A stretch of 64,000 bases of DNA from an uncultured Chloroflexia bacterium (GCA_963810725.1 CAWEOO010000003.1:135314-199313); one strand, 5' to 3'. Counted from the stretch's first letter, positions 15,889-37,768 are shown. The notes: generated by a model from the sequence alone, not told the origin. A program made the numbers and translations.

Positions 15889-16011
15889 GACCGTGAAACG
15901 TTCGAAGCGCGGCTCTGTTTCGGGCGGGCGGCTGTCGGCGATTCGACACGACCGCGAACCTGCCGGTCCGGCGCCGTGCGGGCGCCGGACCGGGTCGAAC
16001 AGCGGAGGGGC

Positions 16012-18331: not shown

Positions 18332-18346
18332 CCCAAGCGCATTAGG

Positions 18347-18368
18347 GCGCGCCGGTGATCCGGCGCGC
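18347..18368. terminator. GC-rich hairpin GCGCGCCGG-TGAT-CCGGCGCGC, 16 bp after the BNR gene stop.
   Basis: It has a perfect 9-bp stem and a 4-nt loop. There is no downstream T-tract, which is usual in high-GC genomes. Confidence 0.3.
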
Positions 18369-18458
18369 TCGAACCACGACGTCAGCCGGCCTGCGCCGGA
18401 ACGCATCACCCGTTTCCGTCCCAGGCGTCCTCTATCAGTCGATGACGCCGGAGGATGC

Positions 18459-18974
18459 GTGGAAACTGGACGCGTGGCCGACTTCGCCGCGGTGAAATCT
18501 CGATCTCGGGAGCGTGCCCTGGAGGCCTTGCACGAGCACGGCCCGATGCTGCTCGCCGCCGCTCGCGTGATCACCCTCGATGACGACGAGGCCAAGGACC
18601 TCGTCCAGACGACCTTCGAGATCGCTCTGCGCAGGATCGACACGTTGCGCGAGCCGGCGGCGATTTGCGCGTGGCTCCTGAGGATCGAGACCCGCGAGGC
18701 CTTCCGGGTCGTCCGTCGACTTCGTCGCGTCGTCCGCCTCGACGGCTACGTCGCGGAGCTTGCGTCGCCTGGATCGGATCTGGCGGCGCGGGCGGACATG
18801 CGGCAGGCACTCATGACGCTTCCGGTGCGGACTCGGGCAGCCGTCGCGCTGCACCACCTGGCCGGGCTGTCGGTCCGAGAAACCGCCGATGCGCTCGGCG
18901 TGACCGAGAACACGATCAAGACGCAGCTGAAGACCGGGCTGGCACGGCTCAGGGAGGTACTCGACGATGGTTGA
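18459..18974 (+). CDS. ECF sigma factor.
   Basis: It has a GTG start and region 2/4 motifs (DLVQTTFEIALRR ... LSVRETADALGVTENTIKTQLKTGLARLR). Confidence 0.8.
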   Translation: METGRVADFAAVKSRSRERALEALHEHGPMLLAAARVITLDDDEAKDLVQTTFEIALRRIDTLREPAAICAWLLRIETREAFRVVRRLRRVVRLDGYVAELASPGSDLAARADMRQALMTLPVRTRAAVALHHLAGLSVRETADALGVTENTIKTQLKTGLARLREVLDDG

Positions 18975-20262
18975 TCGAGCGTCCGACGCCGCGATCGAGT
19001 CCCGCCTGAACGAGTTCCTCGCCGCGGAACGTCGTCGAGCCGAGGCCGACTTTCCGCAGATGCTGCTTCCGACGCCGGGTCGACGCCGCGACGCCGCCCC
19101 GCTCGGGCTCGCGGCGCTGGCGGCGGTCGTCTTCGCGGCGGTCCTGCTGGTCCGCCCCTGGGGCGACCGGCTGCCCGTGACGCCCGGCGGAGAACCGCTC
19201 GGCGCCGACGGGATCCCGCTCTCGATCGGTGGGCAGCCGGTGCTCCGTGGCGAGGCGATCGACGACCGCTTTGCGGAGGGCACCGCGTTCCTGGCGGGCG
19301 GCTACCTCGTGCTCCATCCGACGCCCTGCGATCTCGCCTCGCCCACGCACAGCCCGGCGCCGAGCGCTGGGTGCGCCGAGGACTGGCGACTGGAGGACGT
19401 CGCGGCTGGACACTCCGTCCGCGTCACGATCGCTGACGACGGCGCGACCTTCGTGCGGACCTCGGGCGCCGCGTCCGTCTTCCGAGTCCAGCCGGTCGAG
19501 GATGGGGCGCTCGGCGCCGGGGTCCGAGGACGGGTGCTGCTCATCGAAGCGACCGTCTGGCGCCAGCCGACCAAGGGCCGGATCCCGGAGCGGGCCAGTC
19601 CGCCGGAGGGTGGCGAGATCAACCTCGCCCTCGTGCCGGACTTCGTCGGCGTGTGGGGAGGCCCGACCGGCGAGACCATCGCGGGGTATGTGCCCAAGGA
19701 TCTGTTACTCAACCCGCGCTCCGAACCCGGCGGCACGCCCGAGAACCCGCCGCAGGATGTCCCGATGCCGGTCTACGGGGAGGACCTCACGACGCTCGTC
19801 GGTCACATGGTGGCGGGCGTCGGGTTCGTTCCCCTTGGAGCGTCACCCAACCCGCCCGGAGCCTTCGGCTCGCCGTCAGCCGCGCCATCCGGCGACCCCT
19901 GGGGCCCACTGGCGGTCACGGCGACGAATGCCGGCATGGACGCCAGGAACGAGGGCACGCTTGTGCTAACCGAGCAGTGCGCATTCTTGGAGCGAGCGGG
20001 TGAGCGCGAACTGCTGGTGTGGCCGGCGAACCAGACGAGCTGGTCTCCCGCAACCGCAGAGATCTCGTTCCGGCGCTCGGACGGTCAGGTCGTGGCGATG
20101 CGCCACGGGCAACGGATCGTCATCGGCGGAGGAGGGTCTAGCCGAGCTGAGGATGGGCTCGCTGGAGAGGAGTGGGCGAGCCGGATCGACTGGCTCGTTG
20201 TGCCGGATCCCAGCTGCCTCGTCGATGTTCGGTTCCTCGTTTCTGACGTCCTGCCGGAGTGA
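18967..20262 (+). CDS. Anti-sigma factor-like membrane protein of 431 aa with a roughly 360 aa extracytoplasmic domain of unknown fold.
   Basis: Its ATG overlaps the sigma stop as ATGGTTGA. A single transmembrane helix (LGLAALAAVVFAAVLLV) follows a short cytoplasmic N-terminus. Confidence 0.6.
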   Translation: MVDRASDAAIESRLNEFLAAERRRAEADFPQMLLPTPGRRRDAAPLGLAALAAVVFAAVLLVRPWGDRLPVTPGGEPLGADGIPLSIGGQPVLRGEAIDDRFAEGTAFLAGGYLVLHPTPCDLASPTHSPAPSAGCAEDWRLEDVAAGHSVRVTIADDGATFVRTSGAASVFRVQPVEDGALGAGVRGRVLLIEATVWRQPTKGRIPERASPPEGGEINLALVPDFVGVWGGPTGETIAGYVPKDLLLNPRSEPGGTPENPPQDVPMPVYGEDLTTLVGHMVAGVGFVPLGASPNPPGAFGSPSAAPSGDPWGPLAVTATNAGMDARNEGTLVLTEQCAFLERAGERELLVWPANQTSWSPATAEISFRRSDGQVVAMRHGQRIVIGGGGSSRAEDGLAGEEWASRIDWLVVPDPSCLVDVRFLVSDVLPE

Positions 20263-20299
20263 CCGAGCCGCTCACAGGCGGCACCGAGATACACCCCTG

Positions 20300-20390: not shown

Positions 20391-20464
20391 GTTCGGGTCC
20401 TGGCGAGAGGGCCCGGCACGAGATCTGAACGGCGCCGACTGGTCCTCGGCGCGAAGGAGTGGAT

Positions 20465-22396
20465 TTGTCGGTCGGCGTCACTGCCGAGGTCAAGAGCAAG
20501 CTGTCGGTCGTCGATGTCGTCGGCGAATCGGTCACGCTGAAGAAGGCTGGCACTACCTACAAGGGCCTCTGCCCGTTCCACGGTGAGAAGACACCGTCGT
20601 TCGTCGTCACCCCCGCACGCGAGTCGTGGCATTGCTTCGGCTGCGGCCTGGGCGGCGACATCTTCAGCTTCGTCATGCAGCGCGACAGCGCGACGTTCCC
20701 GGAGGCGCTCCGCACGCTGGCCGCCCGCGCCGGCGTCGAGATCGACGAGCGGACGAAGCGCGAGGACGCCCGCCGCGCCCGGTTGCGCCATGTCCTCGAG
20801 ACCGGCGTCGCCTTCTACCACGCCGTCCTGACCGGCTCGAAGGCCGGCGAGAGCGCGCTCGACTATCTCAAGGGCCGCGGCTTCACGGACGCGACGATCG
20901 AGACCCATCAGCTGGGCTGGGCGCCCAACGGCTGGGACCAGATGGCCCGCCAGCTCCAGGCCAAGCGCGACATCCGGCCGGAGGAGCTCGTCGAGGTCGG
21001 CCTCGCCAGCCCCAGCCAGCGCGGCCGCGGCGTGATCGACAAGTTCCGTGCCCGCGTCCTCTTTCCGATCCGGGACACGAGCGGGCACGCGGTCGGGCTC
21101 GGTGGCCGGCTGCTGGAAGGGGAGGGGCCCAAGTACCTCAACTCCCCGGCGACGCCGCTGTTCGACAAGAGCCGGACGCTGTACCTCATCGACAAGGCCA
21201 AGGGGCCGATCCGCAAGAGCGGCCAGGCCGTGATCGTGGAGGGCTACACGGACGCGCTGATGGCGCACCAGGCGGGCTTCGAGAACGTCGTCGCGAGCCT
21301 GGGGACCGCGCTCACCCCGAACCAGATCGGCCTGCTGACCCGCTACGCCAACCGGATCGCGCTCGCCTACGACGTCGATGCCGCCGGCGAGAAGGCGGGC
21401 ACGCTCGGCGTGACCGCGCTCGCCTCGCTCATCGGCCAGCTCCAGGGCGACGTGTCGGGCGTCAAGCTCGAGGACGTGCGCGTCGTGCGCCTGCCCGACG
21501 GCAAGGACCCCGACGAGGTCGTCCGCGAGGACCCGGCCGCGTGGGAGCAAGGAGTCGCCAAAGCCAAGCCGCTGGTCGAGTACCTCATCGGCCACCATGC
21601 CGGCCGCTTCGACCTCAAGACGAGCACCGGCCGGATCGGCTTCGTGGAGGCCGTGATGCCGGCCATCCGCGACATCGCCGATCCGCTCCGGCGCGACGAG
21701 GCGCTCCAGCAGGTCCGCCACGAGTCCGGCGTGGAGGAGCGCGTGCTGCGTCAGGTCCTGGACCGCCGCATCGCCGCGACCGTGGGCCAGGGTTCGCAGC
21801 GCGGTGGGGAAGCCGCGAGCCGCATCACCGCCGACGCCGTTCTGGCATCGCCGGACGCGCTGCCCATCGGCGACATCCTGCGCGCGGTGACCCCGGTCGA
21901 GGCGGAGTTGCTTCGGCTGCTGCTGCTCGTTCCGGACCAGCAGTTGCGCGTGACCGACGAGCTCGGCCCCGACCAGCTGCCGAGCACGCTCGCACGCGAG
22001 CTGTATCGAGCGATGGTCCTCCAACGCGCGCCCGACGATCAGGGCATCCGCCCGCCGTTCGATGGCGCCGCGCTGCTACTCGCCGTCGACGACGAAACGG
22101 CCTCGCTCGCCCGCGCGTTGTACGCGAAGACAGGCCCGGATGCGCGGACGCTCGAGCCGCGCAAGCTCGCCTACGAGATCACGCGCCTGTTGCTGGAGCT
22201 CGAGGATGACCAGTTGCGCGAGCGCAGTGACTACAACGAAGCCGCCCAGGCGGAGGCCGAGCGAGCCGGTGACACCGACTCGATGGAACGCCTGCTCCTG
22301 GAGCGTCGCCAGATCAACGAAGCCCGCCGGTCGCTCGACCGGCGCCGCGAAGACACCCGACTGCTTGCCCGGCCCAGCGTGGCCGTGCACGCCTGA
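20465..22396 (+). CDS. dnaG: DNA primase.
   Basis: It has a CHC2 zinc finger (CPFHGEKTPSF...WHCFGCG) and a TOPRIM (AVIVEGYTDALMAHQAG). The TTG/GTG start follows a GAAGGAG Shine-Dalgarno. Confidence 0.9.
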   Translation: MSVGVTAEVKSKLSVVDVVGESVTLKKAGTTYKGLCPFHGEKTPSFVVTPARESWHCFGCGLGGDIFSFVMQRDSATFPEALRTLAARAGVEIDERTKREDARRARLRHVLETGVAFYHAVLTGSKAGESALDYLKGRGFTDATIETHQLGWAPNGWDQMARQLQAKRDIRPEELVEVGLASPSQRGRGVIDKFRARVLFPIRDTSGHAVGLGGRLLEGEGPKYLNSPATPLFDKSRTLYLIDKAKGPIRKSGQAVIVEGYTDALMAHQAGFENVVASLGTALTPNQIGLLTRYANRIALAYDVDAAGEKAGTLGVTALASLIGQLQGDVSGVKLEDVRVVRLPDGKDPDEVVREDPAAWEQGVAKAKPLVEYLIGHHAGRFDLKTSTGRIGFVEAVMPAIRDIADPLRRDEALQQVRHESGVEERVLRQVLDRRIAATVGQGSQRGGEAASRITADAVLASPDALPIGDILRAVTPVEAELLRLLLLVPDQQLRVTDELGPDQLPSTLARELYRAMVLQRAPDDQGIRPPFDGAALLLAVDDETASLARALYAKTGPDARTLEPRKLAYEITRLLLELEDDQLRERSDYNEAAQAEAERAGDTDSMERLLLERRQINEARRSLDRRREDTRLLARPSVAVHA

Positions 22397-22420
22397 AATC
22401 CAGTCCCCAAGGAGGAACCC

Positions 22421-24157
22421 ATGCCCGCCGATCCGCTCGATAAGCAACTCGTAGAGGCCGTCCTGTCCCGACCGCGCCGCGCCAAGGCCGATCTCGAGGA
22501 GGCCAAGATGGCCGGCCTGCGCCCGGCGCGCGGTGGTGGCACGGCCGTCGCCGCCGCCGACGACGACGATGACGATGACGACGAGGATCTCGACCTCGGG
22601 CCGGAGGCCCCCGCCCCGGACGCCGACGCCGAGGTGAACGTCGAGGTCGTCGCCGAAGACGGCTCGCTCGACCCGGCCGCCAAGCTCCCGCTCGAAGGGC
22701 CGACCAAGCTCGACCCGAAGGAAGTCGAGGAGCCGACGGCCGAGGACCTCGAGGCCATCAGCGCCGACATGATCGGCATCGACGACCCGGTCCGGATGTA
22801 CCTCAAGGAGATCGGCAAGGTCGCCCTGCTGACCGCCGAGGAAGAGGTCGTCCTGGCCAAGGCCATCGAGCTCGGCGAGCAGCTCGTCGACGAGCCGTGG
22901 AAGGGCATCGCGTCGCTGCACGAGTGGACACTTCACGACACCGAGCGCAAGACGCGGACCCAGAAGCCCCAGCATCGCCTGCCGTACGGCGACGAGGCGC
23001 ACGCCCTCGTCCGGACCGCGATCTCGGCCAAGGCCGCCAAGGACCTCCTGGTGCCGTCGCCCGACTTCCACCTCATCAAGGCCGGCCGCGATGCCCAGTC
23101 GGACGGCACCAAGGAGCTGCTCAAGCAGGCCAAGAAGCTCGTCCACACGTACAACGAGCAGTCGACCCCGGACAACTTCATCACGCTGCTGGACTGGGGG
23201 TTCATGGCCGTCCACAACGGCGATCTCGACTCGCGCGACAACGTCGGCCTGCGGGCGATCTGGGACTGGACCCGCGAGGGCGTGGCCTTCCCGGCGCTCG
23301 AGCGCTACATCATGGCCGGCAACGAGGCCGAGCTCCTCAAGAAGATGGGCTATGACCCCGAGGTCCCGGCCAACACGAAGCTGCGCGACCGCAAGGGCGT
23401 CATCGTCGGCATCGGGCGCGACGCGCGCGAGCAGCTGACGTCGGCGAACCTGCGGCTGGTCGTGTCGATCGCGAAGAAGTACATCGGGCGCGGCATGTCG
23501 TTCCTGGACCTCATCCAGGAAGGCAACATCGGCCTGATCCGGGCGGTCGAGAAGTTCGACTACGAGAAGGGCTTCAAGTTCTCCACGTACGCCACGTGGT
23601 GGATCCGCCAGGCCATCACCCGGGCTATCGCCGACCAGGCGCGCACGATCCGCATCCCGGTCCACATGGTCGAGACGATCAACCGGCTCATTCGCGTCTC
23701 GCGTGGCCTGCTCCAGGAGCTGGGTCGCGAGCCGACGGTCGAGGAGATCGCCGAGGCGATGTCCAAGGGCCAGGAGGTCCAGGTCACGCCGGAGAAGGTC
23801 CGCGAGATCATCAAGGTCTCGCAGGAGCCGGTCTCCCTGGAGACGCCGATCGGTGAGGAGGAGGACTCGCACCTCGGCGACTTCATCGAGGACCGCGGGG
23901 CCTTGGCTCCGGCCGAGGCGGCCTCGCACCAGCTGCTCAAGGAGCAGGTCGAAGCGGTGCTCGACTCCCTCACCGGGCGCGAGCGGCGCGTGCTCCAGCT
24001 CCGGTTCGGGCTTGAAGACGGTCGGGCACGGACGCTCGAGGAAGTCGGCAAGGAGTTCAACGTCACCCGCGAGCGGATTCGCCAGATCGAGGCGAAGGCG
24101 CTGCGCAAGCTGCGCCACCCGTCCCGGTCGCGCAAGCTCAAGGACTACCTGGAGTAG
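22421..24157 (+). CDS. sigA: Principal (housekeeping) sigma-70 factor with a long acidic N-terminal extension.
   Basis: It has conserved regions 1.2 to 4.2 ([21 protein letters not shown] ... [24 protein letters not shown] ... [18 protein letters not shown]). An AAGGAGG Shine-Dalgarno is present. Confidence 0.92.
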
Positions 24158-24173
24158 CGAGAACTGAGCACGC

Positions 24174-24190
24174 TGGCAGCGGTTCTGGCA
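24174..24190 (+). repeat. attL candidate (TGGCAGCGGTTCTGGCA), 17 bp downstream of the sigA stop.
   Basis: It is an exact 17-mer copy of the sequence at 31423-31439. Both copies are preceded by TGAGC. Confidence 0.55.
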
Positions 24191-24272
24191 TCATTCGACC
24201 GCGCGATGCGGGCGACCCCCGGCGGATAACCAGGGGCCGCCCCGATCGCAGCCTATCGAGGAGGCAGCGAAC

Positions 24273-25418
24273 GTGGCCGAGTCTAGCGAGACGCAGGGTC
24301 GCCGTCAGGAACGCGGCGACGGCACGATCTACACCACGGCGGACGGCCGGCTCCGGGCCGCCCTGACCGTCCCCCATCCCCTCACCGGCGAGCCCGTCCG
24401 GCGCTACCTGTCGGCGCGCTCGGACCGCGAGATCCGGCGCAAGCTGCGCGCCGCGAAGAGCGAGGCCGCCGCGATCGGGCGCACCCCGACGATCGCCCGC
24501 TGGTGCGAACGGTGGCTGGCGACGGTCACGCAGCGCGTCCGGCCGGCGACCCTGTCGAACTACCGGACGGCCGTCCGCCAGCACATCGTGCCGGCGCTCG
24601 GCCGCGTCGAGCTCGGCCGCCTGTTGCCGTCCGACGTCGAGGCGATGACCGGCGCGATGATCGACGCCGGCCGCCGGCCGTCGACGGCCGCGCTCACCCG
24701 CCGCATCCTGGTCATCGCCCTGTCCGACGCCGCCCGCGACGGCCTGGTGGCGCGCAACGTCGCCCGCCTGGCCCATCCCCCGCGGACGACGCCGCCCGTC
24801 CGGCGCGCCCTGACCGCGGCCGAGGTCCGGCGCTTCGTGGCCGCCATCGAGGGCGAGCCGCTGGGGCCCCTGGCGATGCTGGCGATCGCGACCGGCCTGC
24901 GCCGCGGCGAGCTGCTCGCCCTGCGCTGGTCCGACGTCGACGGCGCGATGCTGACGGTCGCCCGGGCGCTCGCCAGGAGCGCTCGAGGCGGCTACGTCGT
25001 GGCCGAGCCGAAGTCGCGCCGGGCCCACCGCACCATCGCCCTGCCCGCGCTCGCCCAGGACGCGCTGGCCCGCCAGCGGCTCGCCCAGGACGCCGAGCGC
25101 GCGGCCGCGGGCTCGGCCTGGCAGGATCGCGACGGCCTGATCTTCGCCGACCCGATCGGCCGCGCCTGGCATCCCGAGACGATCACCACCGCCTACCGGG
25201 CGCTCGTCGAGCGGAGCGGGATCGGCCACCTTCGGCTGCACGACCTGCGCCACACCGCGGCGACCCTGGCGCTGTCGGCCGGCGTGCCGGTCCGCGACGT
25301 GTCGGACGCGCTCGGCCACGCGGGCCCGTCGATCACCCTCGACATCTACGGCCAGACGGTGGCCGAGGGGCCGCGCCGCGTCGCAGACGCGATGGACCGG
25401 ACGCTCGGCGCCGAATAG
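24273..25418 (+). CDS. int: Tyrosine site-specific integrase of the phage integrase family.
   Basis: It has the catalytic region motifs R...HDLRHT...Y (LRLHDLRHTAATLALSAGV...ITLDIYGQ). The GTG start follows a GAGGAGG Shine-Dalgarno. Confidence 0.9.
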   Translation: MAESSETQGRRQERGDGTIYTTADGRLRAALTVPHPLTGEPVRRYLSARSDREIRRKLRAAKSEAAAIGRTPTIARWCERWLATVTQRVRPATLSNYRTAVRQHIVPALGRVELGRLLPSDVEAMTGAMIDAGRRPSTAALTRRILVIALSDAARDGLVARNVARLAHPPRTTPPVRRALTAAEVRRFVAAIEGEPLGPLAMLAIATGLRRGELLALRWSDVDGAMLTVARALARSARGGYVVAEPKSRRAHRTIALPALAQDALARQRLAQDAERAAAGSAWQDRDGLIFADPIGRAWHPETITTAYRALVERSGIGHLRLHDLRHTAATLALSAGVPVRDVSDALGHAGPSITLDIYGQTVAEGPRRVADAMDRTLGAE

Positions 25419-25686
25419 GCGCTTGACAACGGATAGAACGCTTGTACGCTTTTGCCGACGCGCTACGGCCTCGGGTATCCGAGTCCCCAGCGGACGGGTA
25501 ACACCCGGCCAGGCCGGCGAGCGCGGCGACCACCGCCGGGGTCAACAGACCCGGCAGCAAAGCGGGATCGTCCGCCGGTAGACCGGCGATCGGGGCGCCC
25601 TCCAGGGGCGCGGCGGATCCAGCAGGCCCGGTCAGCGACTGGTCGCTGCGTGCTCGCACGCGGGCGGACCGTGGAGTCGCTCGTCT

Positions 25687-25875
25687 ATGCCGCACATCCT
25701 CGACCCTGACCGGGCGCGATTGCTGGCGTATCGCTCCGCCGCGGTGCGACGCGCCAAGGCGCGCCGACGACGCGCCGACCATCTCGACCGGCGAGCGACG
25801 CTGCTGTCGCGACAGGCCGCCGATCTGCGCGCCGCGGCGGATCGTGACGTGCGCGACGCGCCGGCGCTGCCGTGA
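25687..25875 (+). CDS. Small basic hypothetical protein of 62 aa.
   Basis: It is a short ORF whose stop overlaps the next gene's start as GTGA. Support is weak. Confidence 0.3.
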   Translation: MPHILDPDRARLLAYRSAAVRRAKARRRRADHLDRRATLLSRQAADLRAAADRDVRDAPALP

Positions 25876-26126
25876 GCGATCGCCTGGCGGCCGCCCTCGC
25901 CGAGCTCGTCGAGGCGATCCGCGAAGAGGCCCGGGCCGACGTCGTCGACGCGAACGCGCCCGACCGCCTGCTGTCGGTCGCGGAGGCACGGGCGACGTTG
26001 AACATCGGCCACGCCCTGATCTACGACCTGATCGGCTCGGGGCGGCTCCGATCGATCCGCGTCGGGCGCCGGCGGCTGATCCCCGCGACGGCCCTGGCCG
26101 ACTACATCGCGGGCCTGGCGGCGTGA
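25872..26126 (+). CDS. xis: Excisionase/AlpA-like helix-turn-helix DNA-binding protein.
   Basis: The protein reads LLSVAEARATLNIGHALIYDLIGSGRLRSIRVGRRRLIPATAL, an excisionase-family HTH. Confidence 0.7.
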   Translation: MSDRLAAALAELVEAIREEARADVVDANAPDRLLSVAEARATLNIGHALIYDLIGSGRLRSIRVGRRRLIPATALADYIAGLAA

Positions 26127-26815
26127 GCGGGATGCGGATCCGCCAGGTCAAGCCGGGCTTCTTCAAGGACGCCAGGATGGCCGAGCTCAGCCCGGAGGAA
26201 CGGCTCTTCTACATCGGGCTCTGGATGCTCGCCGACGACGCCGGCTACCTTCGCTGGGACCCGGCCGAGGCGGCGCTCGAGCTCTACGGCTACGACCCGC
26301 GCGACCAGCGCGAGCGTGCTGTCACCGATCACCTGGCCGTCCTGATCGCGGCCGGGCGCGTGACCAACCTCGAGTGTGGCCACCTCTTCGTGCCGACGTT
26401 CACCACACACCAGCGCCTGGCCGGCCCGACGAGCCGCGTCCTGACCTACGAGCGCGAGCATCTGAAGTGCTACGCCCCGCGCATTCCCGCGGGGGTCCGC
26501 GATGACCCGACAAGCCCCGACCCGGTCAGGTCAGGAACGGGCAACGGTGCGGGGACGGGACGGTTCGTTTCGGAACCGGTCAGCGCGCCTGCGCCCGCGC
26601 CAGGCGACGCGGACGCGCGATCGCTGAAGGAGAAGGTCGGCTGGCAACCCGGCACGTCGGTCGTCGCCGAGCTCGGGCCGATCTGCAACAGGACGCCGAG
26701 CTGCGGAAAGCCGATGACCGGCCACCGTCCCGGGACCGATCGGTGGGTCTGCACCAACGCGCCGGCGCACGCGCCGGCCACTCGAGCCGGACAGATGGTC
26801 GCGGCCGGGAGCTAG
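26123..26815 (+). CDS. Element-encoded hypothetical protein of about 230 aa.
   Basis: It has an N-terminal conserved-looking block (RIRQVKPGFFKD..LSPEERLFYIGLWMLADDAGYLRWDPAEAALELYGYDPRD) followed by a Pro/Gly-rich tail. GC3 bias is strong. Confidence 0.5.
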   Translation: MSGMRIRQVKPGFFKDARMAELSPEERLFYIGLWMLADDAGYLRWDPAEAALELYGYDPRDQRERAVTDHLAVLIAAGRVTNLECGHLFVPTFTTHQRLAGPTSRVLTYEREHLKCYAPRIPAGVRDDPTSPDPVRSGTGNGAGTGRFVSEPVSAPAPAPGDADARSLKEKVGWQPGTSVVAELGPICNRTPSCGKPMTGHRPGTDRWVCTNAPAHAPATRAGQMVAAGS

Positions 26816-26826
26816 GGAGGGTACCA

Positions 26827-27426
26827 ATGAGGTTCTTTCGCACCGATGAGCCGCCCGTCGATCCGTCGCCGGCGGCCGCATCCGACGACCCCGACGACCC
26901 GCCCAGCGAGCCGGCGGATCCTGTCGCCCCGGTCCCCTCGGCGATCACGACCGAGGGCCGGCTCCTCGAGAAGGGATGGCAGCCGCCAACCGACACGATG
27001 CTCTCGAACGTGCTCCGGCGCGAGGCCCTGCGGACGGCCGTCGAGCGGCTCAAGCCTGGTCGACGCCAGGGCCTCAACCAGGTGGCCGCGGCGATCGCGA
27101 CGGGCGACTCCGGCGCGATCGAGGCCGCGATCACCAACCACGTCATCGGCACCTGGCTCGACCTGAATTGTCAGCGCGACACCGGCGACCTGATCGTGTG
27201 GCTCGCGCAACTCGAGAACGCCCTCCGGCGCGAGGTCAACCAGCTCGCCGAGGCGACGCTCGCCAGCCTCGACGCCCTGGCTGCCGACCCCGATGCGCGC
27301 TACCTGCGCGAGCTCGCCCAAGGGTCGCTCGACCGTCAGACGCGATCGATCGGCCCGGGCGGCCGGGCGATGCCGCCCCTCGATCCGCCGCCGGCGGGGT
27401 TCATGCAGCTCATGGTCCCGCGCTGA
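26827..27426 (+). CDS. Element-encoded hypothetical protein of about 199 aa.
   Basis: Its ATG follows a GGGAGG Shine-Dalgarno. The N-terminus is acidic and Pro-rich. GC3 bias is present. Confidence 0.5.
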   Translation: MRFFRTDEPPVDPSPAAASDDPDDPPSEPADPVAPVPSAITTEGRLLEKGWQPPTDTMLSNVLRREALRTAVERLKPGRRQGLNQVAAAIATGDSGAIEAAITNHVIGTWLDLNCQRDTGDLIVWLAQLENALRREVNQLAEATLASLDALAADPDARYLRELAQGSLDRQTRSIGPGGRAMPPLDPPPAGFMQLMVPR

Positions 27427-27914
27427 TGGCACACCCCGTGGCGATCGCCGAGTGGCCTCGGTCTGAGTCGGCCGCTGTACCCTCCGCAGCGGCCGGCTCG
27501 ATCGCCGCGGTCGGGATCCTGGCGGTCACGCAGCCGACCGTCGACGGCCGACCGGCCTGGCCGATCGAGTGGATCCACGACGTCATCCGGCGCTTCGTCC
27601 CGGGGCTCATCCCGATCGTGGCCGGTCACAACGAGCCGGACGTGCCCGCGACCGTCGTCGGGCATCTGTCGTCGCTCGAGGCAGTGCCCGAGGGCCTGCG
27701 CTTCGGTGCCCTCGTCACGATGGCCGCGGCGGAGCGCCTGCAGGCGCGCGGCGGCTACGCGGCCGTCTCCAGCGAGCGTCGCGTCGCGATCGCGGGCCCG
27801 CACACCGTCACCCTGGACCTGGCCGTGGCGCCCTCGAGCCCGCTCGTCGCGATCGCGATCCTCGACGACGACGAGCGGCCGGCCAACCCGTCGTCCTGGA
27901 TCCGCGTCCGATGA
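27426..27914 (+). CDS. Element-encoded hypothetical protein of 162 aa.
   Basis: It is an ORF with GC3 bias. Its stop overlaps the prohead protease start. Confidence 0.45.
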   Translation: MAHPVAIAEWPRSESAAVPSAAAGSIAAVGILAVTQPTVDGRPAWPIEWIHDVIRRFVPGLIPIVAGHNEPDVPATVVGHLSSLEAVPEGLRFGALVTMAAAERLQARGGYAAVSSERRVAIAGPHTVTLDLAVAPSSPLVAIAILDDDERPANPSSWIRVR

Positions 27915-28459
27915 CCGAGGGGCTGATCGAGGGCGTCGTCCTCACGTTCGGGACCGTCGCCACCGTGCGTGACAGCCCGGACGGCCCGACCTACCGCGAG
28001 CTCATCCACCCGACCGCGCTGCGCGGCTTCGATCCGACCCGGGTGCTCCTCACGTTCGGGAACGGCACCCGGGCCAGGGCGGTCGGCCGGGGCGTGGCGG
28101 CCGAGCTCTCCGACCGGGAGCTCGCGATGACGTTCCGGGTCGCCTCGACGCTGGCCGGCGAGGAGGCGATGGTGCTCGCCCGCGACGGGATCCTGGGCGA
28201 CTTCGGCGTCGGTTTCCAGCCGATCGCGGAGCGCACGCGCAGCGACCGGGTCATCGAGCGCCTGGCGATCGACATCGACCGGGTCGCCCTGGTCGAGCGC
28301 GGCGCCTTTGCCGGCACGGGCGTTCGAGTCGCCCGGGCCGCGGCCCAGGACGAGGTCGATCGGCTCGAGCGGGCGGTCGCGATCGATCACGCCCGGGCGA
28401 TCCACGACGCCGAGGTCTTTCGTCGGCGTCTCAGCCAATTCCTGCACGCACAGCCGTGA
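27911..28459 (+). CDS. HK97-family phage prohead (capsid maturation) protease.
   Basis: The protein reads MTEGLIEGVVLTFGTVATVRD...ELIHPTALRGF...LLTFGNGTRARAVG..AAELSDRELAMTFRV, which matches the HK97 prohead protease pattern. Confidence 0.8.
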   Translation: MTEGLIEGVVLTFGTVATVRDSPDGPTYRELIHPTALRGFDPTRVLLTFGNGTRARAVGRGVAAELSDRELAMTFRVASTLAGEEAMVLARDGILGDFGVGFQPIAERTRSDRVIERLAIDIDRVALVERGAFAGTGVRVARAAAQDEVDRLERAVAIDHARAIHDAEVFRRRLSQFLHAQP

Positions 28460-28486
28460 CCAGGACCACGCGACCAGGAGGATCCG

Positions 28487-28726
28487 ATGTCTGATGACGC
28501 GATCAAGGAAGCCGCCGACAACGCCCGCGAGCTGACCGAGCTGCGGCGACAGCCGACCGTGGGCCTCAACCGGCCACCGGAGGACGTGCTCGGGCGCCCG
28601 CTCCCGGACGATCCGGCCGCGGCGCGCGAGCAGCGCCTCGACGCGGTCGCGCTCCGCGACCAGCGCATCGCGGTCGACGTCGCGCGCACCCAGCGCGGCC
28701 TGCCGACGAAGTACGCGACGAAGTGA
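28487..28726 (+). CDS. Small element-encoded protein of 79 aa.
   Basis: It is an ORF with GC3 bias lying between the protease and the capsid-like gene. Confidence 0.4.
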   Translation: MSDDAIKEAADNARELTELRRQPTVGLNRPPEDVLGRPLPDDPAAAREQRLDAVALRDQRIAVDVARTQRGLPTKYATK

Positions 28727-28883
28727 CGGAGGGGGCCGTTTTTTCTGACCCCTCCTGGCGTAGCCGCCAGCGGCTGCGCGCATCGAACGGTGCCCGATTT
28801 GGTCTATTTGCGTCGAGACGCAACTAGTCTGTGCGGGTCTGCACGGACCCAACCCCGACAAGTGAAGAGAGGAGCAACCAACC

Positions 28884-29482
28884 ATGGGTGAGTCACTGGT
28901 CCAGGTCACCGAGGGCAGCGGCAAGAAGCTGCACACCTACAGCCGGGCCATCGGCGCGAACACCGTCGAGGACGAGATCGTCATCCCGGGCGAGCCGTAC
29001 CTGGCGTCCTACGTCATCGCCTTCGCCGGCGTGGGCACCGCCACCCTCGACTCGCACATCGTCCAGATCATGGCCGGCGCGTCGCTCAACGTTCGCATCC
29101 GGCGGATCCGCATCCAGCAGCTGGCCCTTGCCAGCGCGGTCATGAGCCAGCCGTTCCTCATCCATCGTCTGACCACGGCGGGCACCGGCGGCGCGTCGCT
29201 CACGCCGCGACCCTACGACCCGAGCGATGCGGCGGCAGGCGCCACGGCCCAGACGCTGCCGAGCGCCAAGGGCACTGAAGGCGTGTTCCTGCATCGCTTC
29301 ACCATGGGTCTCGTGGCCGCTCACCCCGCGACCGCCTTCTACGAATGGACGCAGCTCGCCGAACGCGAAGCCTCTCGTGATCCCGGCCGGCGTCACCAAC
29401 GGGATCTGCATCAAGAACGGGCTGGCCACGACCGGCGCTTCACTGTACCGGCGTCATCGAGTTCGACGAGACGAGCTTCTGA
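28884..29482 (+). CDS. Small capsid-like structural protein of about 200 aa, possibly a major capsid protein, with two frameshifts near 29380 and 29450.
   Basis: It sits just downstream of the prohead protease, the gene order seen in HK97-like phages. Protein-like sequence continues in shifted frames (AKPLVIPAGVTNGICIKNGLATTGASLY, then GVIEFDETSF*). Confidence 0.4.
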
Positions 29483-29610
29483 CCCGAACAGCCGTTCGCA
29501 TTTCGGAGCGACAGGTGCCAATATCCGTCGTCGGTGGTGATGGTCGACGATCCCTCGAGCCGGTGCCGACGATCAGGTGGGGACCTGGCCGTCCGCCCGG
29601 CTCGGGGTGG

Positions 29611-29997
29611 ATGCCGCGATGCATGACGCCCGACGAGCTCGCCGCCTGGCGCCAGGCAGCGGCCGCGCCGGCTCTCCGAGCCCTCGGGGCACCCGGACGC
29701 CCGTGCATCGACTGCCCGGCCGGCTGGGCCCGCCTGCAGGCCCGCCAGGGCCTGTGCAACGGCGTCCCGGGTCTCGTGCCCGCCGCGCTGCATCCGTCGC
29801 GCCCACCGGCGACCGCGACGCGTCGCGTAGGTCCGCCACGACGCGTCGCGCGGCGATCGACGAGTCGTCAGTGCGCCTGGTGCGGCGTCGCGATCGCCGC
29901 CGGCGAGCGGCAAGGTTCGCGCGTCTGCTCGGCCCGCTGCTACATGGCCGATTGGCGCCGGTCGCGGCGGCTCAGGATGCCCGTCCAAGCCCCGTAG
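29611..29997 (+). CDS. Cys-rich small protein that may bind zinc (CIDCPAGW...CAWCGVAIAAG...CSARCYMADW).
   Basis: It is an ORF with GC3 bias and paired Cys motifs. Confidence 0.45.
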   Translation: MPRCMTPDELAAWRQAAAAPALRALGAPGRPCIDCPAGWARLQARQGLCNGVPGLVPAALHPSRPPATATRRVGPPRRVARRSTSRQCAWCGVAIAAGERQGSRVCSARCYMADWRRSRRLRMPVQAP

Positions 29998-30221
29998 GCC
30001 GCCCAAACGGTCGCCAAGGGCCGATCACCCAGCGCGGTGCCCGTCGCAGCTCCTCGGATGGTTGCAACCCGGCGTCGGGCGACCCAGGACCCGGCGCTAT
30101 GGCCGACATTCGGGCAGGTTGATGGAGTACTTCCCCTTGCGCTTCAGGGTGCCCCCTGGCGCACGCTCCTGGTCACCCGGTCGCGAGCCCCGCGGCCCCA
30201 CGAGAACGAGGTACCTGACCG

Positions 30222-30701
30222 ATGCTGACAGCTGACGGGATCCGGCGAGATCTCTCCGAGGCGTTCCATGGCAACCACGGCGCCGGCTGCGAGTGCTGCG
30301 CGCCGTTCGCGGGCGGACGATCCGCGCTGGAGCTCGAGCTGCTGAAAGAGGCTCGCTACGCGGTCATGCGGTACGAGCGTGAGACGGCCGGCGACGGCCC
30401 GACCGAGCCCGAGCTCGACGCCCTGGCCGAGGCCGCGGCGATCGACGCCCTGATGGCCGCTCGCTACGCGATCACCGAGCGCGCGGTGCGCGGCCTCGCG
30501 CCGGGCGCGCGACGGGAGCCGATCGTCGCCCCCTTCGATCCGGCCACGGAGCGGGTCGCCTGCCAGGCCGAGACGTTCGACGGATCCCATCGCCGCCAGT
30601 GCACGCGCCCGGCGTCGTTTACCCGCGACGGCCTGCTCGTCTGCAAGCAGCACGTCCGCCTCGAGCGGCTCCGCCTGGCGACGCCCGCCGGCTACGATTG
30701 A
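30222..30701 (+). CDS. Cys-containing hypothetical protein of 159 aa.
   Basis: It is an ORF with GC3 bias and contains CECC...C...C motifs. Confidence 0.5.
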   Translation: MLTADGIRRDLSEAFHGNHGAGCECCAPFAGGRSALELELLKEARYAVMRYERETAGDGPTEPELDALAEAAAIDALMAARYAITERAVRGLAPGARREPIVAPFDPATERVACQAETFDGSHRRQCTRPASFTRDGLLVCKQHVRLERLRLATPAGYD

Positions 30702-30705
30702 GTCC

Positions 30706-31419
30706 ATGGCCTCCGGCTCGGCGTTCACGCGGATCCGGGACGACCCGCTCGCGGCGTTCGTCCTGGATCACGCCTCGCTCCTCATCACGGCCGCGTCGAC
30801 CGCGCTCGTGGCCATCCGCGCCATGGCTGTGGCCGGGTTCCAACCTGAGACGGCCGTAGCGCTGCTGTCGAGCGGCGGTCTCACCGGCCTGGTGCTCGCC
30901 ACGATCGAGACCGCGCTGCCGATGGTGGCGCCCGCGATCGCCATTCTGCTGTGGACCGAGTCCGCGCGGTTCCGAGGGTCTCCCTGGCTGTCGATCGTCT
31001 GGGGCGTGTCGCTCCCGATCGCCCTGGTCGTATCGTTGGGGGCGTCGATCGGTTACCTGCTGCTCGGGATCGCTGCGCCCGTCGGCGTGTCCCTGATCAT
31101 TGCTCGTCGGCGTGGCGACCCTACCTTGACACCGGTGGGACTCGCGCTCCTCCTGACCCCCGCGATCGCGCTCGCGCTGATCCCCAGCGGCCGACCATGG
31201 TTCCCGCCCGAGCGCATCACGATCGGGGCCGAGACCTTCACCGGCTACGTCCTCGACGAGTCGGCCGGCTGGACGCGGGTGCTCGTCGACAACCCTCGCT
31301 ACGTCCGCATCGCGGCGTCCGGATCGATCACCGCCCGGGCGTCGTGCGTCACCCAGACCGATCCGCTCTGGACGCCGATCGGCGGCCTCGCCCGTCGCTC
31401 CGGCCTGCCCCCGTGTTGA
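30706..31419 (+). CDS. Polytopic membrane protein of 237 aa, the last gene of the element.
   Basis: It has about six hydrophobic helices. Its stop codon lies 4 bp before the right direct repeat. Confidence 0.6.
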   Translation: MASGSAFTRIRDDPLAAFVLDHASLLITAASTALVAIRAMAVAGFQPETAVALLSSGGLTGLVLATIETALPMVAPAIAILLWTESARFRGSPWLSIVWGVSLPIALVVSLGASIGYLLLGIAAPVGVSLIIARRRGDPTLTPVGLALLLTPAIALALIPSGRPWFPPERITIGAETFTGYVLDESAGWTRVLVDNPRYVRIAASGSITARASCVTQTDPLWTPIGGLARRSGLPPC

Positions 31420-31422
31420 GCG

Positions 31423-31439
31423 TGGCAGCGGTTCTGGCA
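31423..31439 (+). repeat. attR candidate (TGGCAGCGGTTCTGGCA).
   Basis: It is an exact copy of the sequence at 24174-24190. Confidence 0.55.
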
Positions 31440-31749
31440 GCGTCCGGCGTCGGTCGGCCCTGGTCTGTTGTCACGCTCGACGTCGCGCATCGGCGCTCAG
31501 CGCATCCCCCGGCGGACGGTGCCGGACACGGAGGGGCCTACCTGGAGTAGTCGCAAGGCGGTTCCTCGGCGTCGTACACTGGCGACGGCGCGCTCCCGCG
31601 CCTGACTGCCAGACCGAGCCCCCACGCGGCGCGGCGATGCGGCGGTAAAGGGGATCCGGATCCTCGGGACGAACCGGTCGACCATCCGACCGGCCGACGA
31701 CGTGGCGGCGTGGGCGCGTGCGTCGGCGGCCGTGACGGAGAACTGACCG

Positions 31750-33102
31750 ATGACCACCGACAAGGCCTTCAAGCGGGTCGTGCGCGCGCGCATGGCCAAG
31801 ACCGGCGAGCGATATGCCGCCGCCCGACGGACGCTGATCGTGGGGACCGCGGACGGACATCACGCGGAGCCGACGGCCGACGCCGCCACCCCGAGCGGCT
31901 ACCGGATGCGCGGTGGCCTCCACCCGGAGACGGCGGCGCTGGCGAACGTCCTGGCGAACCAGGGTGTTGTCTCGGGCCTGACGGGCGAGCCGTTGACCGA
32001 GGCCGCGATCCTCGGCATCGGCGGGGGCCTGGGCGCCGGCTACATCCTCTGGGAGTTCAAGAGCCACGGCGGGCCGGTGCTCACCCTCGGATTCCGGAAT
32101 CGGTGGCAATACCCGTCGATCCCCGGCTGGACCGGCAAGACGCTCGATCGGCTCGGCGTCGAGCCCGACATGCACGAGACCGGCGGCGCGAAAGGGGCTC
32201 GCGAGGCGCTCGATGCACGCCTGGACGCCGGCATGCCCGTCATCGCCTTGATCGACCTCCAGTCGATCGGGACCTGGGGACAACCCGAGGCGATGTCGGG
32301 GCACTTCGGTCTGGTCGTCGTCGTCTTCGGACGTGACGCCGATGGCGTACCTCGTGGACGACCGTGGCCGGAGCCCATTCCGAGTGTCACCGGCCGTGAT
32401 GGCCGCCGCGCGCGGACGGATCGGCTCGTTCAAGCACCGGATCGTCGGGCTGCGAACGACGCCCGGACCGATCCCGGCCGACCGGCTTCGGGCGGCGATG
32501 CGCGCGGGTCTCCAGGACCAGGTGGATCACCTGCGATCCCCATCCGACTCCTTCTCGCTCCCGGCCTGGCGCAAGTGGGGCCGTCTGATGACCGATCAGC
32601 GGAACGCGAAGGCGTGGCCGCGGGTCTTCGCCGACGGTCACGGCCTGTTCGGCTCGCTGTCGGCCCTTCACGAAAGCGTCGACGGCCAGGTCGGGCCATA
32701 GGGCGGGCACTTGCGGGAGCTGTACGCCGCATCACTCGACGAAGCGGCCGTCGCGCTCGACAACCCTGCGCTCGGTGACGCGGCGCGGGCGTGGCGGGGC
32801 GTCGCCGACCGATGGGAGGAGCTGGCCGACGCGGCCGTACCGCCCGATCTCGACGGTGCAGCCCAGGCGGTCGAGGCGGTCGAGACCCTTCACGAGGCGG
32901 TGATGGCCGGCGAAGGGGGTCGGTCGCGCGTGGGCGCGGCCGCGGAGACCGCGTGGGCGATCCGGGATCGCTACGCCGAAGCCTTCCCCCTGTCACCGGA
33001 CCGCATCGCGGCGATCCTCGAGGACTCGGCGACCGGCTCGGCGCGATCTACCGGGCTGAGGTCGACGCGCTCGAGGTGACCGCTCAGGCCATCGGCAGAT
33101 GA
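31750..33102 (+). pseudogene. BtrH-like (BtrH_N plus DUF4872-type) protein. It has a frameshift near 32340 and an in-frame TAG at 32699-32701.
   Basis: The N-terminal domain is in ORF 31750..32778. It continues in 32333..32701 and then 32711..33102 (LRELYAASLDEAAVALDNPALGDAARAW...). Confidence 0.5.
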
Positions 33103-33886
33103 GGTCTTCACTGCGGCTTCGCAGGGCCCACCGCTCGGGGGTCAGGCCGATCGGGCCGGCCTCGACGAGTCGGTCTGACCCGGGAGTCCCGTCGACTGGC
33201 GCCAATCGACCGGTCATCCAGTCGTGGTACCAGGGCGCCCACGTCCGGGCGCCGCCGTCGTGGTACTCGGCGTATGACCGGCGGTGCGGTGGCTCGTCGG
33301 CGGGCCGCACGGATGTGAACGCCCCCGCATCGTGGAGCGGCGGGAGCTCGGTCTCGGAGACGCCCAGCGTCCGGTAGACCGCCTCGACCTGGTGCAGCCA
33401 CTCGTGGACGTAGCCCTGCTCGGGGTCGGGATCGGTCAGGAGGGTCCGCCAGTGGTCGGTCGAGATGGACGAGAACCCGGCACCGAACGTCGCATCGGAC
33501 GGTCCGATGCTGCATCCCCAGCCACACTGGGGCACGGCCGGATCGCTCGGCCACAGTGCGTAGACGGAGTCGTAGGTCGCACCCGTCCCGGCGACCTCCT
33601 CGAGCTCGGGGCGGACCTCGCGGGGTCCGACCCACCAGCGGCCCCCGCCGCTCGATGACAGCGACCGGATCGAGCGGCGCACCTCGACGACATCGAACGG
33701 CTCGAGCGCTGCGAGGCCGTCACTCCAGGCGTGGACGGTCGCCGGCAGGCGCTCGACGACGTCCATCACGGCCGCCCGTTCGTCGCGGGTCATGACCCGG
33801 CGGGCGCGGCTGCGCTGCAGCCCAGATCCGTACCGGGCGTCCAGGACCGGAAAGAGCAGCACCAGGGTCCGCCACGACTGGGTCAT
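32993..33886 (-). CDS. Hypothetical protein with an HExxH motif (GYVHEWLHQVEAVY), possibly a metallopeptidase-like fold.
   Basis: It is a 297-aa ORF with protein-like composition. The C-terminal 30 aa may be an artefact. Confidence 0.45.
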   Translation of the reverse strand: MTQSWRTLVLLFPVLDARYGSGLQRSRARRVMTRDERAAVMDVVERLPATVHAWSDGLAALEPFDVVEVRRSIRSLSSSGGGRWWVGPREVRPELEEVAGTGATYDSVYALWPSDPAVPQCGWGCSIGPSDATFGAGFSSISTDHWRTLLTDPDPEQGYVHEWLHQVEAVYRTLGVSETELPPLHDAGAFTSVRPADEPPHRRSYAEYHDGGARTWAPWYHDWMTGRLAPVDGTPGSDRLVEAGPIGLTPERWALRSRSEDLICRWPERSPRARRPQPGRSRRAGRRVLEDRRDAVR

Positions 33887-35706: not shown

Positions 35707-35781
35707 TCCGGCGTAGCTCAGTGGTAGAGCGGGCGGCTGTTAACCGCTTGGTCGTAGGTTCGAGTCCTACCGCCGGAGCCA
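35707..35781 (+). tRNA. tRNA-Asn(GTT).
   Basis: A hand-folded cloverleaf gives a 7-bp acceptor stem (TCCGGCG/CGCCGGA), a D-arm GCTC-AGTGGTA-GAGC, an anticodon stem GGCGG/CCGCT with the loop CTGTTAA, a T-arm GTAGG-TTCGAGT-CCTAC, and an encoded 3' CCA. Confidence 0.9.
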
Positions 35782-35817
35782 GACCTCCCCTCATCGATCG
35801 CCTGGACGCGTCGCGCC

Positions 35818-36474
35818 TCAGTCGGTGAATGCGATCGAGGCCGCCAGTTCCGCGACGATCGCTTCCATGGCTGGATCGGGATGCGGCGACAGCGTGGTGA
35901 AATAGTAGCCGCGCCCAGCGTGCACCAGGGTGCGCCCGACGATGTGCTTGCCGGCACAGGTCTGCTCCAGGATCCCGGCGGATTCGCCCGCGAACGTGCC
36001 GGACCGCGGGGTGCCCGGACAATCGGGGGGCAGCCCGGCCGCGACGTGCGTCTCGAAGTCGGACCGCCATTCGTCCGCAGTCGTTTCGGTCGGGATCGCC
36101 ATCGAGTTCATGACGAGGAACGAGCCGAAGCCCGCCGGGGCGATCGCGTCCTCGCCCGGAACCTCACCGCCGGGGGTGAACTCTGCGAGGGATTCCCACG
36201 ATCCGTCGTACTCGTGAACGATCCAGTCGGGTGGGACCTCGACGCGGTACCCGTGTCGAGTGGACTCGAACACGCGCGCGGATGGCGACGCGGAGGGGGA
36301 GTCGGACGGCGTCGCGGAGGGCGCCGCCGCCTCTGACGGAGCGGTCGACGGCTGCCGGATCGTCGGCGAAGGCGCCGGCACCGACGTCGAAGTCGCCGGT
36401 GCGCTGACGCCCACACACGCCACAAGCCCGACGGCCATGGCGACGACGCCGAATCCCCGAAGCCGGCGGCTCAT
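35818..36474 (-). CDS. Lipoprotein with a Pro/Ser-rich linker.
   Basis: The N-terminus is MSRRLRGFGVVAMAVGLVAC, a lipobox. Its ATG overlaps the upstream stop as ATGA. Confidence 0.65.
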   Translation of the reverse strand: MSRRLRGFGVVAMAVGLVACVGVSAPATSTSVPAPSPTIRQPSTAPSEAAAPSATPSDSPSASPSARVFESTRHGYRVEVPPDWIVHEYDGSWESLAEFTPGGEVPGEDAIAPAGFGSFLVMNSMAIPTETTADEWRSDFETHVAAGLPPDCPGTPRSGTFAGESAGILEQTCAGKHIVGRTLVHAGRGYYFTTLSPHPDPAMEAIVAELAASIAFTD

Positions 36475-37700: not shown

Positions 37701-37768
37701 GGCAACGGATGATGCGCGCGGAACGTTCCCGAAACGTTACGGATTTGCCGGCACGTCCGGCGCAGGAG

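Follow-up and report, generated by a model that had tools for sequence, protein, structure and literature searches.

The stretch of DNA analysed here, 64,000 nucleotides from an uncultured Chloroflexia bacterium (hereafter the window), contains a compact run of genes immediately after the primary sigma-factor gene sigA. A preliminary description of the sequence had drawn attention to an exact 17-bp direct repeat on either side of these genes and had proposed that they form a discrete, compact integrative element inserted 17 bp behind sigA, a candidate capsid-forming phage satellite or, alternatively, a heavily degraded prophage. The genes and sites of this element are collected in Table 1. All of the coding signal between the two repeats in a frame plot of G+C at third codon positions (GC3) is on the + strand, as had been stated, and the repeat itself, the tyrosine integrase, the excisionase-like helix-turn-helix (HTH) protein, an open reading frame (ORF) of 79 amino acids (aa), the Cys-rich ORFs and the terminal multi-pass membrane protein were all found to be present.

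Table 1. Genes and attachment sites of the element, in window positions. L110 (circular) and L013 (2.3 kb) are related metagenome contigs described in the text; dN/dS is the ratio of non-synonymous to synonymous substitution rates.
Feature	Position	Strand	Size	Evidence and remarks	Identity to L110
attL core CTACCTGGAGTAG	24145-24157	+		sigA 3' end; extended version in L110 attP; synteny with relatives stops at 24156	
P' arm repeat (17-mer)	24174-24190	+		16 bp from core; L110 attP copy identical and at equal distance (2842-2858)	
Tyrosine integrase (int)	24273-25418	+	381 aa	Pfam Phage_integrase 8e-19, Phage_int_SAM_3 2e-7, phrog_1 3e-60	77%
int-xis spacer	25419-25871	+		Short ORFs only (25423-25581, 25452-25709, 25687-25875); frame plot ambiguous	
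Excisionase / HTH_17 DNA-binding protein (xis)	25872-26126	+	84 aa	HTH_17 3e-9, TIGR01764 4.5e-10; 52-54% identical to L110 protein	52%
Phage-type replication-initiation-like protein (rep)	26132-26815	+	227 aa	phrog_16167 1.8e-18, phrog_1408 1e-15, phrog_2149 6e-14; C-terminal Cys cluster	66%
Conserved core gene	26827-27426	+	~199 aa	65% identical to L013; dN/dS 0.33	35-37% (236-aa gene)
Prohead-protease (assemblin) fold protein, family core gene	27426-27914	+	162 aa	Predicted fold; His68, Ser115 and Glu117 invariant	38%
Stand-alone, catalytically dead (by alignment) S78 prohead-protease domain	27911-28459	+	182 aa	phrog_2263 1.3e-13; hhalign 100%, E 7e-54	
79-aa ORF	28487-28726	+	79 aa	Coding signal; absent from L013 and L110	
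Jelly-roll protein, phage tail-module origin, accessory	28884-29482	+	~200 aa	Two +1 frameshifts (~29357, ~29446); absent from L013 and L110	
Cys-rich zinc-ribbon-like protein, core gene	29611-29997	+	~128 aa	40-52% identical to L013 and L110	40%
Cys-containing core gene	30222-30701	+	159 aa	Matches start of last L013 gene	57% (153-aa gene)
Multi-pass membrane protein, accessory cargo, only this copy	30706-31419	+	237 aa	Coding signal; singleton cluster; absent from L110	
P arm repeat (second 17-mer)	31423-31439	+		98 bp upstream of core; L110 equivalent TGGCAGCACTTCTGGCA at 2687-2703, 109 bp from its core	
attR core CTACCTGGAGTAG	31538-31550	+		Displaced sigA 3'-end copy; L110 P-arm alignment ends here	

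The integrase has the complete set of tyrosine-recombinase catalytic residues, R-K-H-R-H-Y, and these positions (R210/R211, K247, H323, R326, H349 and Y359) are invariant between the window and L110. It is followed by a spacer, which shows no homology to the 188-aa gene in the same slot of L110, and then by xis and by rep, whose homologues are located in IMG/VR phage contigs of 36-42 kb. The preliminary description had recognised no terminase, portal, tail, lysis or replication gene; the first four are indeed missing but the presence of rep means that a replication gene is not. With int, xis and the replication module together at one end, the element is arranged as in satellites of the phage-inducible chromosomal island (PICI) and Staphylococcus aureus pathogenicity island (SaPI) type. 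Searches of Pfam, PHROGs and NCBIfam gave no match in the element to capsid, portal, terminase, relaxase or FtsK-like proteins, and no tail-tube or lysis gene was found in it. Comparison with the portal, terminase and connector families of related phages using hhalign (run with '-M 50') was negative, with the positive control working. No ORF of the element contains an FtsK/TraB-like DNA translocase domain, the hallmark of actinomycete integrative and conjugative elements, and PADLOC identified no known defence family among the proteins.

Exactly two copies of the 17-mer TGGCAGCGGTTCTGGCA are present in the window, a number not reached in any of 100 dinucleotide-preserving shuffles. A 13-mer, CTACCTGGAGTAG, likewise has only two copies in the window, lying outside the 17-mers, and again two were reached in none of 100 shuffles. 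The left copy of the 13-mer is the last 13 nt of sigA, TAG stop codon included. The roles of the two repeats can be read from L110, in which the non-coding stretch from the 153-aa gene to int consists of TGGCAGCACTTCTGGCA, 106 bp, GGACTACCTGGAGTAG, CGCGATCTGAGCACGC, TGGCAGCGGTTCTGGCA, 91 bp and then int. Here GGACTACCTGGAGTAG, at 2810-2825 of L110, represents the sigA 3' end with its stop codon and is an extended form of CTACCTGGAGTAG. In a three-way alignment the L110 attP equals the left side of the window attR, followed by the core and by the right side of attL up to the start of int; the match between window 31405-31537 and the L110 P arm runs up to the core and stops there. As the L110 attP is composed of the left arm of attR, the core and the right arm of attL, the crossover is placed in the sigA 3' end and the 17-mers in the arms. 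The 17-mer was therefore rejected as the att core, the part it had been given in the preliminary description, in favour of CTACCTGGAGTAG.

As read from these alignments, the element integrates by means of its tyrosine integrase into the last 13 nt of sigA, and not behind the gene as had been thought, and it brings with it an identical 13-nt copy with a stop codon so that sigA stays intact. The window SigA is full length, 578 aa, the same as in relatives. Measured from core to core the element is 7,393 bp (window ~24145-31550). Each att arm has exactly one copy of the 17-mer, in direct orientation and at a conserved distance from the core, and the 17-mers are probably arm-type binding sites for Int or Xis. 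The attP of the window element would have the layout 17-mer, ~100 bp, CTACCTGGAGTAG, 16 bp, 17-mer, int. Its predicted junction, window 31520-31550 joined to 24158-24190, is GGACACGGAGGGGCCTACCTGGAGTAGCGAGAACTGAGCACGCTGGCAGCGGTTCTGGCA and the predicted restored attB is CTCAAGGACTACCTGGAGTAGTCGCAAGGCGGTTCC. Testable sequences are thus available for the 13-bp core at the end of sigA, for both 17-bp arm sites and for the two predicted junctions. As a practical caution, a direct repeat that flanks an element need not mark the point of crossover.

Five relatives with SigA 98-99% identical to that of the window were compared with it. Neither the element nor the 17-mer is found downstream of sigA in any of them, synteny stopping at 24156 and resuming at 33111, which bears out the description of the region as a discrete compact integrative element. 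The sigA stop codon is TAG in the window and in the L110 attP and TAA in element-free relatives (L007 and L009, at 11735-11737). This difference fits a stop codon supplied by the element; yet attR reads TAG as well. A scan of a genome collection with SigA returned distant taxa only, the best being a Chloroflexota metagenome-assembled genome (MAG) at 71%, with no empty site and no second sigA-integrated element. In a scan of JGI metagenomes the 27-nt P' arm gave no match and the integrase alignment led only to an integrase of 43% identity located at another site.

Six representatives of the protease-fold family came from an exhaustive HMMER search with the window protein, and one of them is encoded on two contigs of 6,427 bp, L110 and L111, from different forest-soil assemblies (ERZ1760244 and ERZ1760248). 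The two contigs are 100% identical and circularly permuted with respect to each other, and each ends in a 115-bp overlap; L110/L111 is a 6,312-bp circle or a tandem array. Its gene order is int, 188-aa gene, xis, rep, 236-aa gene, 74-aa gene, protease-fold gene, 221-aa gene, Cys-rich gene and 153-aa gene. The circle has no dead protease, jelly-roll gene or membrane protein gene, and these three are therefore considered accessory. The slot of the dead protease in L110 (1073-1738) is taken by the 221-aa gene, which is unrelated and without family match, so that this slot appears to be an exchangeable cargo position. The 2.3 kb contig L013 follows the window gene order at 52-65% identity, with an unknown gene, a 160-aa protease-fold gene, a dead protease, a Cys-rich gene and the start of the 159-aa gene; it is without the 79-aa ORF and the jelly-roll gene. 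The conserved backbone of the family consists of int, xis, rep, an unknown gene, the protease-fold protein with its His and Ser kept, the zinc-ribbon protein and a further Cys-containing protein. All element genes tested, including the dead protease, gave dN/dS values of 0.3-0.5, which, as a property of the aligned sequences, indicates that the element genes are under purifying selection. Since the compact order recurs in L110/L111 and L013 at 35-77% protein identity, it is very unlikely to be the outcome of random prophage decay.

Two adjacent genes of the element are related to prohead proteases. The preliminary description had annotated the second of them (27911-28459) as an HK97 prohead protease, and this homology was upheld by the match to phrog_2263 (Table 1). 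A match to TIGR01543 was also obtained over the full length, at E 4.8e-4 and 20 bits, which is below the curated cut-off of 59. The protein has only two close homologues in a large protein collection, one of which, P0134, carries PF04586. Scanning IMG/VR with it gave 16 phage loci at 43-47% identity, in all of which the domain forms the N-terminus of a protease-capsid fusion ORF of 578-602 aa, and hhalign against this fusion family gave the probability and E-value in Table 1. Both catalytic residues are kept in all fusion homologues of the phages, His in the motif H[DE]G and Ser in [LM]S[VA].F. In the window protein a 9-aa deletion removes the His loop (LLTF---------GNG) and Gly replaces the catalytic Ser (DFGVGF), so the part of the annotation that implied an active enzyme did not survive. 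The His-loop deletion, the Ser to Gly change and the stand-alone form are common to the homologues in the window (182 aa) and in L013 (196 aa), and the truncated, inactive form is therefore old. Its dN/dS between window and L013 is 0.41, within the range of the int and rep genes of the element (0.32-0.39), and the alignments thus describe a catalytically dead domain kept under purifying selection.

The first of the two genes (27426-27914) belongs to the family's conserved core, and its relationship to proteases is of a different kind. Profile comparison with S78 domains revealed no similarity, and Pfam and PDB profile searches were likewise negative. An AlphaFold model of the protein (pLDDT, the predicted local distance difference test score, 75.6) matched 63 viral models at E<=1e-3, and the named ones among these are prohead proteases or protease-scaffold/capsid fusions. 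The spacing of 47 residues between His68 and Ser115 in this family is that found in phage protease domains. On the strength of the model, a protein of protease fold is part of the core of the family. The alignment of this protease-fold family is too divergent for locus scans. A 21-nt motif, TCGCCGCGGTCGGGATCCTGG, has three copies spanning both protease-fold genes (27502-27522, 27844-27864 and 28176-28196), at least 81% identical and spaced by 342 and 332 nt, and may be due to chance in GC-rich coding sequence.

The ~200-aa protein encoded at 28884-29482 had been taken to be capsid-like. When its two +1 frameshifts were corrected a 200-aa protein was obtained with 655 homologues of ~200 aa at full coverage and 50-65% identity, none of which has a Pfam domain. 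The protein has a single jelly-roll fold. In the longer phage contigs ~10 kb separate the true capsid gene (Phage_capsid) from the homologous gene, which lies downstream of it, after the tail tube and two large tail proteins, and which in phage contig L006 directly precedes an Amidase_2 endolysin. An HK97-type capsid was therefore rejected on the basis of the single jelly-roll fold, the tail-module context and the lack of any Phage_capsid match in Pfam, PHROGs or NCBIfam. The protease-capsid fusion and the jelly-roll gene occur together in phage contigs L019 and L024, ~6.6 kb apart, and the dead protease and the jelly-roll gene of the window therefore come from one phage lineage. This uncultured high-GC lineage, represented by L014-L027 from IMG/VR and by L001, L003 and L006, has its capsid fused to an N-terminal S78 protease (578-602 aa) and its tail module ends in the conserved 200-aa jelly-roll protein without a Pfam family. 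It has no relative among cultured phages. Searching cultured phages with the dead protease and the jelly-roll protein by tblastn gave no match, nor did megablast of the element against the same collection, and neither the protease nor the jelly-roll protein had a significant match in PDB sequence searches. Taken at the level of sequence comparison, this copy of the element has added to the backbone a dead protease captured from a protease-capsid fusion gene, a tail jelly-roll gene from the same lineage and a membrane protein.

The two frameshifts in the jelly-roll gene, at ~29357 and ~29446, had been seen in the preliminary description and had been regarded there as arguing for decay or a sequencing issue. 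They are real features of the assembled sequence. However, conserved chromosomal genes of the same assembly at 9319-9743, 10400-11987 and 12668-13736 are split over 2-4 reading frames in comparison with the close relative L007, one of them being a phosphoenolpyruvate-utilising enzyme, and in sister assemblies dnaG and sigA are also split. The split chromosomal genes point to indel errors in this, probably long-read, assembly. As core genes are frameshifted too, the two frameshifts in the jelly-roll gene are no sign of decay, and frameshifts in long-read MAGs should not be taken as pseudogenisation.

Several of the remaining genes gave little or no match. The conserved core gene at 26827-27426 has none in Pfam, PHROGs, NCBIfam or PADLOC, and the same is true of the terminal membrane protein. 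The 79-aa ORF showed no significant homology in family searches, tblastn or hhalign. Weak but consistent tblastn matches had raised the possibility that it is a fragment of a portal C-terminus, which was rejected at an hhalign probability of 0.5%. The zinc-ribbon-like protein matches phrog_1271 weakly, over the Zn-ribbon part of that family (E 4e-4), and a homologue adjoins rep in phage contig L116. The homologue of the 159-aa protein is the last gene before attP in L110.

Taken together, we favour the reading that ~24145-31550 represents one integrated member of a family, not described before, of very small integrative elements which derive from phages and would act as minimal capsid-less satellites, with a rough probability of 0.55. 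That it is an integrative element is very likely, while the satellite and helper part of the reading stands at about even. The recognisable genes of the element are, from their homologues, phage-derived. The broader idea of a satellite-like mobile element put forward in the preliminary description is thus partly supported, in modified form. In the proposed cycle, the tyrosine integrase recombines attP with the sigA 3' end and, after excision, the element would replicate as a circle. Since there are no capsid, portal, terminase, tail or transfer genes, it would probably be packaged, and so spread, by a helper phage. The likely helper is the uncultured lineage with the capsid fused to the S78 protease (L014-L027), which would also be the source of the captured genes. 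The element's protease and the dead decoy domain would probably enter or bind helper procapsids, where both could alter or block maturation, favouring the element or protecting the host. Action on helper procapsid maturation is plausible because prohead proteases co-assemble as oligomers inside procapsids (PMC9958956). The fullest form of the proposal, which is tentative, is a new minimal satellite family of probable Chloroflexota in which the only structural genes are protease homologues, a divergent and apparently active one and, in some members, a dead decoy copied from the helper's fusion; these would hijack or poison procapsid maturation, and the element would sit in the last 13 bases of sigA with an attP having conserved 17-bp arm sites.

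Other explanations were weighed against this reading. The capsid-forming satellite of the preliminary description, with small capsids made from a capsid protein and a protease of its own, shares with the element the small size and the int, xis, rep and protease-related genes, but is scarcely credible given the lack of a capsid protein of HK97 fold. The supposed capsid protein, 200 aa long, is a single jelly roll of the phage tail module and is missing from L013 and L110, its neighbouring protease homologue is catalytically dead, and Pfam, PHROGs and NCBIfam revealed no portal, head-tail connector or small terminase. A heavily degraded prophage, in which large deletions between intact att sites took away the genes for head, tail, lysis and packaging and left random remnants, is largely refuted and highly improbable. 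It would suit the 425 bp that separate the protease domain from the jelly-roll gene here as against ~6.6 kb in L019 and L024, the protease domain without capsid part and catalytic residues, and the two frameshifts of the jelly-roll gene. However, the compact backbone is found again, at 35-77% identity, in L013 and in the circle of 6.3 kb, and the truncation, the 9-aa deletion and the Ser to Gly change are common to L013, hence old, in a gene that has been maintained (dN/dS 0.41). The backbone genes are intact throughout, as are the two att sites, and the frameshifts have their counterparts in conserved core genes of the assembly.

An integrative episome or mini-plasmid with anti-phage cargo, replicating by its Rep and persisting or spreading without phage packaging (for example by transformation, by vesicles or by mobilisation in trans), is the main rival, though rather unlikely. 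In it the protease-fold protein, the dead decoy, the jelly-roll and the membrane protein would serve as defence or superinfection exclusion against phages with the protease-capsid fusion. Such an episome accords with the presence of int, xis and rep, the circularity of the relative, the lack of an identifiable packaging gene or site in Pfam, PHROGs and NCBIfam, and the absence of family members from viral-contig collections. Purifying selection on the dead protease suits a decoy or sensor, and the membrane protein beside attR is in a typical cargo position. On the other hand no protein matches a known defence family in PADLOC, there is no relaxase, origin of transfer (oriT)-associated gene or partition gene, and every recognisable gene derives from phages. 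As interference genes are also found in known satellites, such cargo does not separate the two models. Several observations nevertheless weigh against the helper-dependent satellite itself. Encapsidation and the helper are inferred, not shown; a packaging signal or small terminase was not identified in the element, and no helper-type phage gene lies elsewhere in the 64-kb window. The protease fold of the core protein comes from a 7-sequence AlphaFold model without sequence-profile support. There is no clean empty attB among the five relatives, whose genes after sigA differ (AHSA1/HTH_20 in place of window 31551-33110) and whose sigA stop is TAA and not TAG. A tandem integrated array would assemble in the same way as the L110/L111 circle, which comes from assemblies that, judged by their scaffold names, are apparently of bulk forest soil and not viromes. 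The family is very small, with a single full circle and a few fragments recovered from among billions of proteins, and IMG/VR scans with the integrase and the protease-fold protein found no member of it.

The nearest described concept is that of the virion-encapsidated integrative mobile elements (VEIMEs) without capsid genes, which are packaged as concatemers (PMC9618062). As described by Eppley et al. (2022, PMC9618062), these are marine phage satellites that occur as concatemers in virus particles and have sizes of <5 kb up to 16.8 kb. The element resembles them in its very small size, its tyrosine integrase, replication genes and excisionase/AlpA-type regulator, its circular or concatemeric form and its lack of a major capsid gene. 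At 7.4 kb integrated, with a 6.3 kb circle, it also lies within the VEIME description by size and genes (5-17 kb, integrase, replication, no capsid). However, VEIMEs are defined by concatemers found inside particles, whereas packaging of the present element is a prediction; a circular or tandem assembly such as L110/L111 would agree with concatemers in virions but is no specific sign of them. The gene content is unrelated, this family having prohead-protease-fold genes and targeting the sigA 3' end, and its host is probably a soil Chloroflexota as opposed to marine plankton.

Among the better known satellites, SaPI CpmA/CpmB and SaPIpT1028 rcm redirect capsid size, and capsid-forming PICIs (cf-PICIs) carry an HK97 protease. 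The element shares with PICIs, SaPIs and cf-PICIs the int-xis-rep front end and site-specific integration, and theirs are genes that act on helper capsid assembly, as is proposed for those of the element. It is about half their size, however, and without a small terminase, capsid, portal or connector genes or a recognisable master repressor; its capsid-related genes are only proteins of protease fold, one of them inactive. Likeness to the HK97 prohead proteases themselves (MEROPS S78, PF04586, with the herpesvirus assemblin fold) is by sequence for 27911-28459 and by predicted fold and the 47-residue spacing for 27426-27914. Unlike them, neither window gene adjoins a gene for a capsid protein, both catalytic residues are gone from 27911-28459, and 27426-27914 is without detectable S78 sequence similarity. 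Integration follows the lambda-type, 3'-end-restoring pattern, in which both junctions carry a short core that repeats the end of the target gene, the attP arms contain direct repeats and int lies beside the P' arm. The target, however, is the 3' end of an essential primary sigma-factor gene and not a tRNA gene, and a non-exhaustive literature search found no precedent for a sigma-factor gene 3' end as an integration target.

The surrounding chromosome has a G+C content of ~72% over the window. Directly upstream of sigA, with a 24 bp gap, is dnaG (20459-24157 for the pair), as in the macromolecular-synthesis operon, and the best named relatives of SigA are from Chloroflexota and Dehalococcoidia MAGs. 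The dnaG-sigA order and the SigA relatives suggest a Chloroflexota host and not an actinobacterium, despite the 72% G+C. Between attR and the point at which synteny resumes, 31551-33110 stands in place of the AHSA1 and HTH_20 genes of the relatives and contains a BtrH_N-domain gene that changes frame at ~32330 (31750-32330 and 32333-32701) and a 53-aa ORF on the minus strand. As this segment differs from the relatives, variation behind sigA is independent of the element. Two further segments, 14213-20287 and 35797-40306, have no counterpart in the relatives L007-L009 and may be other islands; the latter has genes of 409 aa and 788 aa on the minus strand beside a tRNA-Asn (35707-35781).

If the proposed reading is correct, the element would be among the smallest integrase-bearing phage parasites known and, to our knowledge, no integrase-bearing phage parasite of such kind has been described from this phylum. 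The uncultured phages with the S78 protease-capsid fusion can be named as the candidate helper lineage. It would also represent a new principle of interference, in which an inactive, stand-alone domain of the helper's protease and a divergent protease would be used instead of scaffold-like proteins that redirect capsid size.

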